Notes under the pieces: generated by a model
Database searches by the model: none
Seen by the model: the letters and a program-made list of their open reading frames with translations, nothing else
Told to the model about the DNA's origin: nothing
Shown: positions 49,299 to 52,192 of the stretch, piece after piece
How positions within the stretch are numbered: the first letter of the stretch is position 1
Layout of the letters: every line of letters begins with the position of its first letter
Origin: Novosphingobium sp.
Lineage (GTDB): Bacteria > Pseudomonadota > Alphaproteobacteria > Sphingomonadales > Sphingomonadaceae
DNA length: 64,000 nucleotides
Direction: 5' to 3'
Assembly (NCBI GenBank): GCA_031428115.1
Contig: JANPOS010000070.1
Coordinates: 97,418 to 161,417, forward strand
Program-made: the position numbers and the translations under genes

Positions 49299-49829
49299 AT
49301 GCAGGATGCCGCGCCCAAAAAGATTATCATCGTTGCCGGACCCAATGGCGCGGGCAAGACAACCTTTGCCCGCTCGTTCCTCCCGATGGAAGCAGGTGTG
49401 CCCCGCTTCATAAACGCCGATGCCATTGCCGCAGGCCTTGCCGCGTTCGCCCCCGAAACCGCCGCGATCCGCGCCGGACGGCTGATGCTGGAGGAGATCC
49501 ACCTGTGCGTCCGGCGTGGGGATAGCTTCGCTTTTGAAACCACCCTGTCCGGTCTGACCTACTTGCGCCACATCGCCGCATGGCGCGCGCTGGGTTACCG
49601 GGTCAGCCTGATCTTCCTGAGCTTGCCAACCGCCGAGACGGCTATCGAGCGAGTCGGCTCGCGGGTGCGGCAAGGCGGACACCATGTTCCTGAGTCGGTA
49701 ATCCGCCGCCGCTTTGACGCCGGTCTCAAAAACTTCCGGCAGCATTACATAGGTGCTGTGGACGACTGGATCCTGTATGATAACTCCGCAGGGGAACCTG
49801 TAGCGCTCGAATGGGGAGAAACGCCATGA
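49299..49829 (+). CDS. zeta-toxin-like P-loop kinase (COG4185-type AAA/zeta family)
   Basis: It has Walker A IIVAGPNGAGKTT near the N-terminus and is about 176 aa with FETTLSG and a GGHHVPE region typical of zeta/PezT-like kinases. It is the in-frame tail of the spurious 727-aa track ORF 47646-49829. Confidence 0.75.
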   Translation: MQDAAPKKIIIVAGPNGAGKTTFARSFLPMEAGVPRFINADAIAAGLAAFAPETAAIRAGRLMLEEIHLCVRRGDSFAFETTLSGLTYLRHIAAWRALGYRVSLIFLSLPTAETAIERVGSRVRQGGHHVPESVIRRRFDAGLKNFRQHYIGAVDDWILYDNSAGEPVALEWGETP

Positions 49830-50008
49830 GCCAAACCGACCTGTCGCTTGCGAAAAACCCGGATTTGCGTGCCTCGCTCGCCGGCATGCGCCGCGCCGCA
49901 GCGCTCGCCCGCCAGACTGCAATCCAAACCGATACAGAGATCGTCATGGTGCGGGGCGGCAAACCGGTGCGGATTTCGGCAGCGGAATTGCGCGCAAGCA
50001 AGGATTGA
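49826..50008 (+). CDS. 60-aa protein translationally coupled to the zeta-like gene (possible cognate partner)
   Basis: It has an ATGA overlap with the zeta-like stop, native GC-rich codon usage and no recognised domain. Confidence 0.5.
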   Translation: MSQTDLSLAKNPDLRASLAGMRRAAALARQTAIQTDTEIVMVRGGKPVRISAAELRASKD

Positions 50009-50062
50009 TCTGAATGTGATCTTCCTTGCTTTTGCGTGACACAAATGGGGGCTATTGCACCT

Positions 50063-50129
50063 GTCACCGTAACCGGTAACTACCGGAATTCCTCTGTACT
50101 GGGAATTCCCCCGGTATCACCGTAAATTC
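50063..50129. repeat. left composite inverted-repeat end of the three-gene cassette
   Basis: It contains GTCACCGTAA (50063-50072), CCGGAATTCC (50083-50092), GGAATTCCCCC (50102-50112) and TCACCGTAA (50117-50125). The same motif set occurs in inverted orientation at 51966-52020. Confidence 0.7.
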
Positions 50130-50575
50130 AAATCCATAACCGCAACATGCTCCGTAAATACTTCCAGAGTAAGCGCATCAAGCAGCGCGCGGTCTTCATC
50201 AGTGAAGCGTCGAAGTTCGACATGGCCTGTGTTTGGACCTTCGGGCGTATGAACCAAGCGCACCTGCTTGCCATAGTTTACCGATATTTCGCGACTTTTT
50301 CCTGCATTACCAATGGCGAAATAGGCTTTCGCTCCTAGTTTTTTCGACTGTCGGGTATCTCGAAATTTTGAAGCGGCGATAGAATAAGTCGCCAATTCTT
50401 TCGCCCCGTAATGTTCGACCCAAGTCAGTGAGAGCCCCCCTTTGTCGCTGGGACGCAACGTAAATGCAGCGCCCGTGATGCCTTTGAAGCGGCCATCATC
50501 AGGATCGCGCACCTGTTGGCCATACGGAACGAAGCGCATCAAATGGTCGGAATCGGGAATCCGATCCTTAGCCAT
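50117..50575 (-). CDS. hypothetical protein (third gene of cassette)
   Basis: The ATG at 50575 overlaps the upstream stop as ATGGCTAA. The 152-aa protein starts MAKDRIPDSDHLMRFVPYGQQV. I recognise no family. The track ORF opens at 50608. Confidence 0.65.
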   Translation of the reverse strand: MAKDRIPDSDHLMRFVPYGQQVRDPDDGRFKGITGAAFTLRPSDKGGLSLTWVEHYGAKELATYSIAASKFRDTRQSKKLGAKAYFAIGNAGKSREISVNYGKQVRLVHTPEGPNTGHVELRRFTDEDRALLDALTLEVFTEHVAVMDLNLR

Positions 50576-51158
50576 TGCCGAACCAAGCGTCGGGTTGATA
50601 AGGAGCAAGGCGGGGCATAATCAATTCGAGCGTTGCCATCCCAGCAGTCGGGTATCCATCTGCGCAACTGACAACCCATTGGAGTCGGTCGTTCGCTTTG
50701 AACTCAATCGTCAGGCGGCTGCCATTGGCCTCCCATACGGCCAGAAGATGCCCGTCCGGGTTCAGCGCTAGCGACGGTTTTGAATGGCGACCTTCGGCGA
50801 TCATGAACCGTATGAAGCTCTTGTATGATTCCAATAGGACCGGTCGATCATCGCCGAACCATTCATCGCAATCATGCAAGAGGTCAAGCTGTCGGAAATA
50901 GCGGTTGCGCGCCGCCAAATCGAGCCGCATCGCCACCTTGGAAGTCCAGATCTTCGCATCGGCCAGCGCAACAAAAACCCGCTCAGCAAGCGATGCTGGT
51001 GCCATTGTTTCGCTGACAGGAGCAACTGCATGCGGCTCCACCAACCCATGCTTAATAATATCGGCCATCCCCAACCCCAACGCACTGGAGCTTGAAATTG
51101 ACGATTTCAATTGCCGCAAATTTACGTTGCTGGCGAGATAATTTCCCATTTCTGTCAT
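50568..51158 (-). CDS. hypothetical protein (second gene of cassette)
   Basis: It is 196 aa and has an ATGA overlap with the upstream stop. I recognise no family. Confidence 0.65.
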   Translation of the reverse strand: MTEMGNYLASNVNLRQLKSSISSSSALGLGMADIIKHGLVEPHAVAPVSETMAPASLAERVFVALADAKIWTSKVAMRLDLAARNRYFRQLDLLHDCDEWFGDDRPVLLESYKSFIRFMIAEGRHSKPSLALNPDGHLLAVWEANGSRLTIEFKANDRLQWVVSCADGYPTAGMATLELIMPRLAPYQPDAWFGNG

Positions 51159-51898
51159 CGTGAAAAACTGGCTCTCGCTTTGTCAGTGATAGATGTTTCA
51201 AAAATCTCATTTTTCAAGTTGCGCATCTTTTCTAGCACACCTTCAATTTCATCTACCTTAACCGGAAGATTGCGTTCCGCAATCACGTCTATGTCCAACA
51301 AAAATGCAGCGTGCTTAGGTATCACTGGCGCGGTCGTTGCAGATTGCACTATTGCCAGCAAACCCAGGTCAGCAAAATCCCGTTCAAATCTCCACCCATA
51401 GCTATTCACCGTATCGCACATTGGCGGCAGAGTAAGGTTGATCGTCAGGTAGTGCTCATACCACGTAACCTCCCCTTCATTTGCGGGAATGTCGATCCGG
51501 TTGATGTATCGAACACCAATTCGAGCCAATTTTCTGAATCCAGTCACCTCTTGCGCGATCCGCACATCCCGCATGCAGCGCTCAACAAAGGGTTGCCATC
51601 CGTCATATGGGGCAAGGTGGGACCAAGTTTGAAATGCATCTGCCACAATGAGAACATCTGTCTCGTCTGGCGAGGAAAGTCTTGCTTGGACCTCGGCCGT
51701 AAATGCGGCCTTCTCCTGTGCGAAATCGAGACTAGCGCCTTTGGTGATCTGGGGAAGCTCATTCGCATATTCGCGTTTCAGCCGTTTAAGCAGCTTTTTG
51801 TAGAGTGATTTGGGTAGAGGCTCTGCATATCGAAGCTGAATGACCGCTTCGATGATCGGTGGCGCATCGTATGGCGGTCCGAATGAGGTTTCAGTCAT
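51155..51898 (-). CDS. TIGR04255-like family protein (function unknown)
   Basis: PPIIEAVIQLRY near the N-terminus, ARIGVRYINRI mid-protein and the about 250 aa length match my recollection of TIGR04255. I prefer the ATG at 51898 over the GTG at 51916. Confidence 0.7.
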   Translation of the reverse strand: MTETSFGPPYDAPPIIEAVIQLRYAEPLPKSLYKKLLKRLKREYANELPQITKGASLDFAQEKAAFTAEVQARLSSPDETDVLIVADAFQTWSHLAPYDGWQPFVERCMRDVRIAQEVTGFRKLARIGVRYINRIDIPANEGEVTWYEHYLTINLTLPPMCDTVNSYGWRFERDFADLGLLAIVQSATTAPVIPKHAAFLLDIDVIAERNLPVKVDEIEGVLEKMRNLKNEIFETSITDKARASFSR

Positions 51899-51965
51899 GT
51901 CGTCGATCCTATCCACTGCTTTCCCGATCTTATCAACATAGCGTGTCCAATAATTCGCTGACTTC

Positions 51966-52020
51966 GAATTACGGGAAAAGGGGGAATTCCGGAGATTACT
52001 GTGACGAGATTACGGTGACG
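51966..52020. repeat. right composite inverted-repeat end of the cassette, includes a tandem 14-mer
   Basis: Read on the minus strand it contains GTCACCGTAA (52019-52010), GTCACAGTAA (52005-51996), CCGGAATTCCCCC (51992-51980) and CCCGTAA (51975-51969). On the plus strand, AGATTACTGTGACG is followed directly by AGATTACGGTGACG. Confidence 0.7.
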
Positions 52021-52192
52021 GCGCACTTGTTTTTCAACTCCCCCTAATCCGCCCCGCCTCCCGCTTGCCCTGATCAGCCGCGAACGCTGAATGACGCGGA
52101 AATCACTCGTCTGCACAAAAATTCCCCACTCCGGCAGCAATTCGTGCCATTAGGCCCCCAATCCACCCAACCAGACGAGAACGACACCAAAG

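Follow-up and report, generated by a model that had tools for sequence, protein, structure and literature searches.

Genetic organization of the cassette and its flanking repeats

Analysis of a 64,000-nucleotide (nt) stretch of a Novosphingobium sp. contig (GenBank assembly GCA_031428115.1, contig JANPOS010000070.1, positions 97,418 to 161,417 of the forward strand), referred to as the window, revealed a compact three-gene operon, here called the cassette, that is bracketed by two inverted blocks of short repeats. All coordinates are those of the window. The interval between the repeats holds three overlapping genes on the minus strand. Gene 1 (51155–51898) encodes a 247-aa member of the TIGR04255 family (NCBIfam TIGR04255; E value, 5.6e-38). 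Gene 2 (50568–51158; 196 aa) overlaps genes 1 and 3, and gene 3 (50117–50575) encodes 152 aa as called or 163 aa from an upstream TTG. None of the three is a recombinase gene, which bears out a preliminary description of this DNA made from its sequence alone, and none matched a defense-system model. The operon leader or promoter region (51899–51958, minus strand) carries a pattern, TTGGACAC .. GTTGATAAGA .. AAAGCAGTGGATAGG, that a comparison of upstream regions found to be common to cassette relatives. A scan of the operon region detected no consensus sigma-70 promoter and no terminator consensus.

Each block consists of a tail, a core, and a head of short sub-repeats, and in both blocks the head points toward the cassette. 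The left block (50045–50128, plus strand) begins with the tail ATGGGGGCTATTGCACC (50045–50061), followed by the core TGTCACCGTAA (50062–50072), CCGGAATTCC (50083–50092), GGAATTCCCCC (50102–50112), and an innermost copy, TCACCGTAA (50117–50125), which overlaps the last two codons of gene 3 and provides its stop codon. The right block (51965–52049, minus strand; repeat family D16) comprises, from the inside outward, CCCGTAA (51969–51975), CCGGAATTCCCCC (51980–51992), two abutting 14-mers GTCAC[A/C]GTAATCTC (51992–52019), and the tail GGCGCACTTG..CCCCCTAATC (52020–52049). The motifs listed in the preliminary description were all present at the positions it gave, and the similarity of the two ends reaches approximately 20–30 nt farther outward on both sides than described there, through ATGGGGGCTATTGCACC on the left (50045–50061) and GATTAGGGGGAG..AAGTGCGCC on the minus strand on the right (52049–52020).

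The 10-mer GTCACMGTAA has three matches in the window, at 50063–50072 (+), 51996–52005 (−), and 52010–52019 (−), all of them at the cassette ends; the mean in shuffled sequences was 0.02, and 0 of 100 shuffles reached three. Two of the three window matches of CCGGAATTCC (0.25 expected) also lie at the cassette ends. A profile built exclusively from blocks of other genomes found its best two window matches at 52006–52029 (−; E value, 0.006) and 50059–50074 (+; E value, 0.016), that is, at the two cassette ends and in inverted orientation, and the same profile scan detected no further credible block copy in the 64 kb. The G + C content (GC) is 0.60–0.68 in the flanks and 0.44–0.56 between the repeats, and the drop, roughly from 0.65 to 0.50, coincides with the repeat positions.

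The termini are TGTCACC on the left and CGTCACC on the right. The preliminary description had called for a check for target-site duplications, and none was present, the flanks being GCACC and GCGCA. The conserved core TGTCACCGTAA is not palindromic and showed no folding, and pairing is confined to the GGAATTCC sub-repeats among themselves. Two GGAATTCC copies of the left block could form an 8-bp hairpin on the transcribed strand just past the gene 3 stop codon (−15.5 kcal/mol; z = −2.5), which lacks a T-tract. The left block was unchanged in near-identical (97–100%) strain-level contigs of other samples, as was the right block in the contig L002 of a slightly divergent strain (97.4% identical overall).

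A dispersed repeat family in Alphaproteobacteria

The wider search for the composite motif that the preliminary description had proposed was carried out with the pattern GTCACCGTAA, a gap of 3–25 nt, and CCGGAATTCC in one genome per species (185,579 species). It returned 40 single matches, mostly chance occurrences in coding DNA, among which seven alphaproteobacterial matches (five from Sphingomonadales, one from Kiloniellaceae, and one unclassified) and one match of another lineage have a common layout. A scan of JGI metagenomes added approximately 12 blocks, giving about 20 independent blocks altogether. The named genomes with blocks are mostly Alphaproteobacteria, chiefly Sphingomonadales.

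The common layout starts with a tail of the form TTAG/GGGG..GTGCAC(C), in more detail TTAG(G/T)G .. (A/T)GTGCAC or TAAAC. The core TGTCACCGTAA(TT) follows one to five times, and then (GTCC)CCGGAATTCC one to approximately 12 times, so that the head is a variable array of (C)CGGAATTCC or CCGTAATTCC sub-repeats. Blocks occur as singles, dimers, and clusters over approximately 20 loci of many genomes. It is very likely that the repeats are real and belong to a family associated with REP-associated tyrosine transposases (RAYTs; REP, repetitive extragenic palindrome) or their relatives flanked by terminal inverted repeats (TIRs), a family that is uncatalogued as far as our literature searches show; a search for the core sequence itself found nothing relevant.

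Other origins were considered and rejected. The motif gave two chance matches in IMG/VR viral contigs, which does not support a phage origin of the repeat; a plasmid origin of the cassette was rejected as there was no match on plasmids; and a known RNA family was rejected since Rfam returned a single sub-threshold chance match.

Two loci show further forms of the block. At L071 (30–130), a 42-nt unit, TAATTGAATTAGTGCACTGTCACCGTAATTGACCGGAATTCC, is present in perfect tandem duplication, indicating that whole blocks, beyond sub-repeats, can amplify locally. At L041 (6585–6667), in a metagenome-assembled genome labeled Candidatus Multivoradales, two cores stand tail to tail with a 33-nt spacer, in the polarity seen around transposase genes but without a gene. 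From this locus, the block family may extend outside Alphaproteobacteria.

Association of the blocks with Y1 transposase genes

The approximately 20 loci had been retrieved by DNA pattern alone. By tblastn, four independent loci (L063/L082, L051/L085, L069, and L074) proved to have a RAYT-like gene next to the blocks, which by a rough estimate is far above chance, as this gene class makes up a tiny fraction of a genome. At L063, L051/L085, and L069, the gene sits between an inverted pair of blocks. The clearest arrangement is that of L069, where inverted repeats of 26 bp, TTACGGTGACAG[G/C]ATATCAATTGCAG, matching at 25 of 26 positions, enclose an intact gene of 224 aa, and the right repeat overlaps the stop codon of the transposase gene.

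The block-linked proteins matched Pfam Y1_Tnp (E values, 4e-9 and 9e-9) and the NCBIfam REP-associated tyrosine transposase model (E values, 1e-20 and 7e-18), the latter with scores of 65–74 bits that both fall below the curated cut-off of 80. As read by sequence, they contain HVHL or HVHI, RYLAFNP or RYVSLNP (Y---NP), and approximately 85 extra C-terminal residues, in which no Pfam helix-turn-helix domain was detected.

Genes of this kind have been described before. RAYT-like genes with long TIRs were named TIRtrons, and the enzymes that they encode TIRYTs; copies of the TIRs may form moderately abundant families of singles, dimers, and clusters, many TIRs have GGGGWSAS in common, and DNA is sometimes inserted between the partners of a TIR dimer (Di Nocera et al., 2013; PMC3733652). 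Most TIRYTs fall into subclass 2.1, the second-largest Y1 subclass, which is characterized by a C-terminal extension, a Y---NP motif, and no REP hairpins nearby (Quentin et al., 2018; PMC6006769). The CTGTCCCC units of L031, L039, L046, L055, and L083 read, in reverse complement, as GGGGACAG, which fits GGGGWSAS exactly, and the core CTGTCACC is one base off this form of the published consensus. The match within the window is partial, with GGTGACAG on the left (7/8) and GGTGACGG on the right (6/8).

From these sequence comparisons, the best reading of the blocks is that they would be the cognate DNA of a trans-acting RAYT-like Y1 transposase encoded elsewhere. The family is of the TIR type rather than a classical REP family, because its core forms no hairpin and only the GGAATTCC sub-repeats pair. 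The preliminary description suggested a cassette that may be mobilized in trans; for the repeats, the terms non-autonomous and targeted in trans are fair ones, given that a RAYT-like Y1 enzyme of the HUH superfamily is encoded elsewhere.

At L074 (1–420), the RAYT-like gene is truncated at approximately residue 113. An unrelated small open reading frame (ORF) comes next and runs up to the head of an inverted block, so that here, too, foreign DNA adjoins a head.

Polarity of the blocks and the DNA that they enclose

Blocks around transposase genes turn their tails toward the gene and their heads away from it, whereas those around the operon of the window have their heads inward, forming a head-to-head dimer with a 1.85-kb spacer. 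The opposite polarity of the repeats around cargo and transposase genes indicates that the cassette is not derived from the ends of the transposase unit itself. The search for an insertion sequence (IS) with matching ends that had been suggested for this element yielded only Y1 genes, which lie on the tail side of the repeats, whereas cargo lies on the head side.

Head-to-head pairs were found with other cargo as well. At L055, a gene for a 456-aa secreted-looking protein has approximately 12 units upstream and two inverted units downstream; at L086, 1.9 kb including an AraC/GyrI-like regulator gene is enclosed; and at L063, the pair encloses approximately 300 nt of AT-rich DNA. The last locus has the order block, AT-rich spacer, inverted block, transposase gene, and block, which agrees with the picture of doublets flanking the gene in systems of RAYTs and their inverted REP doublets (REPINs).

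Across the family, low-GC foreign DNA lies on the head side and core genes or a transposase gene on the tail side. Among the 29 blocks with sequence on both sides, the GC of the head-side 500 nt was below that of the tail side in 22, with a mean difference of 0.08 (one-sided sign test, approximately 0.004, the blocks not all being independent). Head-side cargo, as judged by reading the sequences, includes Rhs toxin tips with small immunity-like ORFs (L031, L059, and L072), a nucleotidyltransferase with an exonuclease (L077), and a GHKL-type ATPase (L076). For many blocks with cargo on the head side, there is no partner block within reach (e.g., L046, L039, and L077). The preliminary description had envisaged that the motif might turn out to be a REP-type repeat whose positions are unrelated to the cassette boundaries; a REP-type family is indeed what was found, yet where its copies lie and which way they point does follow the borders of foreign DNA.

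Relatives of the operon occur without the repeats

Homologs of genes 1 and 2 co-occur in many sphingomonad-like contigs, and relatives of the three-gene operon (60–70% identical) were found in at least five other contexts: between DUF1465 and glnA (L005), next to an Omp85 gene and an S24 peptidase (L006), flanked by glyoxalase and VTT-domain genes (L008), flanked by a HAD hydrolase and sodC (L010), and directly 3′ of a small-terminase gene (L014–L017; PHROG terminase small subunit, E value, 2.9e-9). The core motif was absent from the 16 loci (84 kb) holding operon relatives, none of which had matching inverted repeats at the two ends, and no conservation of the repeats around the relatives was detected. 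No recombinase gene adjoined the operon relatives in any fetched locus. The occurrence of the relatives in at least five repeat-free contexts indicates that this cargo moves on an evolutionary time scale, and does so by other means than these repeats. A weak likeness, TCTCACCGAAA, upstream of the operon in L005 and L010 was considered as a repeat remnant and was judged too short to count.

The closest relatives (70% identical) lie at L014 (899–3300), L015 (456–3215), and L017 (146–2818), where the insertions after a small-terminase gene of the phage or gene transfer agent (GTA) type have very tight junctions and no repeats. The ORF past the operon in L014–L017 resembles, by eye, the start of a GTA-type large terminase (GRGFGKTR motif).

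A second type of short tandem repeat, AAAGTC(T/A)CAC twice and then AAAACG, was observed a long way upstream of cassette relatives (L005, 4400–4700; L008, 4600–4660) and of the block in L055 (6680–6720 on the minus strand). In addition, L005 has a TTTTAGGGACGG triplet just past the DUF1465 stop codon.

The hypervariable site downstream of lepA

The cassette is preceded on the left by lepA, a zeta-toxin-like ATPase gene, and a 60-aa ORF, and is followed on the right by a DUF6481 gene. The cassette is present in every contig with the exact 60-aa ORF (nine contigs) or the exact DUF6481 protein (five contigs), and wherever the blocks of these contigs were aligned, they were identical. No joint skipping the cassette was present in contigs of eight metagenome runs, and no second copy was found in the records searched. 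An empty site, which the preliminary description had proposed to look for in related strains, was not recovered from contigs with the flanking genes, from LepA relatives, or from the eight metagenome runs; the search found no record with the exact LepA protein. Thus, no evidence of movement of this cassette copy was found.

In three relatives whose LepA is 96% identical, the DNA that follows lepA is unrelated: one has a cupin gene together with a fragment of a transposase, and another a convergent gene. Their wholly different downstream DNA indicates that the site after lepA is hypervariable.

IS110 relatives are known to target REP-type repeats. At L089 (9700–9925; LepA 96% identical), lepA is followed by a vapBC-like pair and then by a block of three units from the present repeat family; the head of this block abuts a 40-aa N-terminal fragment reading like an IS110-family transposase.

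Comparison with known mobile elements

The TIRtron/TIRYT system is similar in its Y1/HUH gene of approximately 225 aa with Y---NP and a C-terminal extension, its non-hairpin inverted repeats of 20–40 bp, and units containing GGGGACAG (GGGGWSAS). TIR copies of that system are scattered as singles, dimers, and clusters; the present repeats show these arrangements across loci of many genomes, and two copies were counted in the 64-kb window. TIRs flanking a Y1 gene, the defining feature of that system, were found in other genomes (L069, L063/L082, and L051/L085). The present repeats differ in their variable array of GGAATTCC-type sub-repeats, in a polarity that is consistently toward low-GC foreign DNA, and in that two copies enclose a 1.85-kb operon, none of which is described for TIRtrons (Di Nocera et al., 2013; Quentin et al., 2018).

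The REPIN–RAYT systems, including TnpA-REP of Escherichia coli, share the inverted doublet of short repeats, a repeat-flanked, single-copy, domesticated Y1 gene, and the lack of a target duplication. REPs, however, are palindromic hairpins of 20–40 nt with a GTAG (or CGTC) tag, whereas the present core is not palindromic; REPIN spacers span tens of bases, whereas the spacer here is 1.85 kb and codes for three genes; and REPs reach copy numbers of up to hundreds, compared to two copies in the 64 kb of the window.

IS-derived mobile insertion cassettes and miniature inverted-repeat transposable elements (MITEs) resemble the element in having terminal inverted repeats that bracket passenger genes with no transposase inside. 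In contrast to DDE-type cassettes and MITEs, the present element has no target-site duplication, no further copies were found, the linked enzyme is a Y1 HUH transposase, and no IS was found with the same ends in the same polarity. The IS200/IS605 elements (e.g., IS608) share a transposase of the Y1 HUH superfamily and insertion without target duplication, but their ends are one-strand subterminal hairpins rather than inverted repeats and their transposase lies inside the element. Ends of the Tn7, Mu, or Tn402 type (a 5′-TGT terminus and subterminal repeats) were also considered and rejected because the similarity continues beyond the TGT, there is no 5-bp duplication, and the neighboring transposases are of the Y1 type.

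The suggestion of an IS-type mobilized cassette therefore stands in part. Dispersed repeats linked to a transposase, and similar pairs around other cargo, speak for it. The IS-derived kind does not hold, and movement is unproven: no target duplication, second copy, or empty site was found, and the polarity is opposite to that of the transposase unit.

Origin of the repeat-bounded arrangement

The explanation that we favor, with a probability of roughly 55%, is that the operon occupies the spacer of a head-to-head, transposase-associated repeat dimer at a hot spot for insertions downstream of lepA. The hypervariable site would first have carried a repeat or a repeat dimer, and the operon would then have been inserted, or swapped, between the repeat partners by a route independent of the repeats. 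At present, the left block would provide gene 3 with its stop codon and with a hairpin just past it, and the right block would stand approximately 25–60 nt upstream of the conserved leader. Membership in the repeat family, the link to Y1 genes of other genomes, the polarity, and the lack of the repeats around operon relatives are shown; the order of these events, like the present activity of any Y1 enzyme in this genome, is what we infer. Movement of the repeat-bounded unit in trans is possible.

Several observations weigh against this explanation. No empty site turned up, so that insertion between pre-existing partners is what we infer. With its nonpalindromic core, the repeat is no textbook REP, and no RAYT-like Y1 gene was detected by tblastn inside the 64-kb window. 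The blocks also abut the cassette very closely (4 nt past the stop codon on one side and approximately 25–60 nt off the conserved leader on the other), and both share private details (GGAATTCCCCC and then CCGTAA(A)TTC). A unit that travels with its own ends fits this tight abutment and private likeness equally well. Finally, a variant of the gene 3 end with approximately 93% identity, from two wetland metagenomes (runs X11 and X12), keeps a variant of the left block, GGTTGTTGGACCTGTCACCATAACTACCGC, but its outer 116–146 nt cannot be aligned to the left flank of the window even at 80%. Block and cassette could have been found together in another context here, or could equally have just a different neighbor at the hypervariable site.

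The second explanation is a cargo-carrying REPIN-like unit, in which block, operon, and block form a non-autonomous element that a TIRYT- or RAYT-like Y1 enzyme excises and re-inserts in trans as single-stranded DNA. There are four independent block–cargo–block structures with different cargo, and the blocks of the window coincide exactly with the cassette limits and the GC boundary. Y1 transposition leaves no target duplication, so its absence is expected, and the wetland variant retains its block next to an unalignable outer flank. In 2011, Bertels and Rainey reportedly held REPINs to be the mobile unit of RAYT systems. Set against this are the absence of a second copy or an empty site, with no skipping read or contig in the eight metagenome runs or among the flank-bearing contigs, the many blocks whose head-side cargo has no reachable partner (L046, L039, and L077), and the spread of the operon family without these repeats. 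No RAYT or TIRYT is known to move kilobase-sized cargo. No autonomous mobility is described for TIRYT or RAYT-like genes (PMC3733652; PMC6006769). We consider such a unit possible, although rather unlikely.

A broader and more doubtful proposal is that TIRYT-type Y1 transposases and their polar repeats constitute an alphaproteobacterial system for docking and mobilizing cassettes, in which heads would capture modules and a head-to-head pair would make a module movable or exchangeable in trans. The modules captured would, just as tentatively and at long odds, include defense-like genes, Rhs toxin tips with their immunity genes, and the TIGR04255 operon. RAYT and TIRYT transposases are among the commonest domesticated bacterial transposases, and to our knowledge no function or mobility has been shown for the TIR-flanked Y1 class. 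If true, docking would give the large, functionally unexplained RAYT subclass 2.1 a role in the flux of accessory genes. Cognate repeats that lie at the edges of acquired genes with a fixed polarity, and sometimes bracket whole operons, call for a mechanism, and either feature could make the role of the enzyme testable with a defined 2-kb substrate. For annotators, the blocks would serve as a simple marker of where small accessory islets end in sphingomonads. Should the repeats just mark a hot spot, they would be an ordinary though previously uncatalogued repeat family.

The preliminary description had offered operators for a single DNA-binding protein as an alternative, and the blocks could more generally be protein-binding arrays with a host function, such as operators, insulators, silencing nucleation sites, or a 3′ terminator. 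The right block does lie upstream of the only region able to hold the operon promoter, its abutting 14-mers are typical of binding sites, the left block offers a hairpin just past a stop codon, and up to 12 units stand upstream of cargo genes in L055 and L046. The same repeats nevertheless occur on both sides of Y1 transposase genes and beside unrelated cargo in either position, they are absent from the 16 loci with operon relatives, no regulator gene accompanies them, and the hairpin lacks a T-tract in a region where the scan found no terminator or promoter consensus. A host function of this kind is thus very unlikely.

The least probable explanation is coincidence, with the operon arriving first and two separate repeat copies later entering the gaps on either side. 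It would be in keeping with the build-up of REP-type repeats in intergenic regions, mainly 3′ of genes (PMC3733652). Against it, the 64 kb have no more than these two blocks, which stand 1.9 kb apart, inverted, exactly at the GC boundaries, and with private features in common, and the same geometry recurs in three other loci.

Operon proteins and neighboring genes

Sequence searches of the PDB with the three operon proteins gave no match, and a literature search on TIGR04255 found nothing relevant. The AlphaFold model of the gene 1 product had a predicted local distance difference test score (pLDDT) of 92.9. Its best fold matches were two-repeat, saddle-like pseudo-dimers resembling the TATA-box-binding protein (Foldseek probability, 1.0, but a low TM-score of approximately 0.3), and this modeled fold may hint at nucleic-acid binding. 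Gene 2 has 58 homologs, located on the same contigs as the homologs of gene 1, and its product matched no family. Gene 3 is strongly conserved among the cassette relatives (eight homologs; mean column identity, 78%); it had no Pfam, PADLOC, or PHROG match, and its structure model was unusable (pLDDT, 35).

Immediately to the left of the element, the zeta-toxin-like P-loop gene, which is supported by a Pfam match, and the coupled 60-aa ORF occupy 49299–50008. The pair ends in a hairpin (49991–50036, plus strand; inverted repeat I9), which is not part of the element and indicates the host flank on the left. This pair was not found after lepA in the relatives inspected and is probably a further accessory module of the lepA hot spot.

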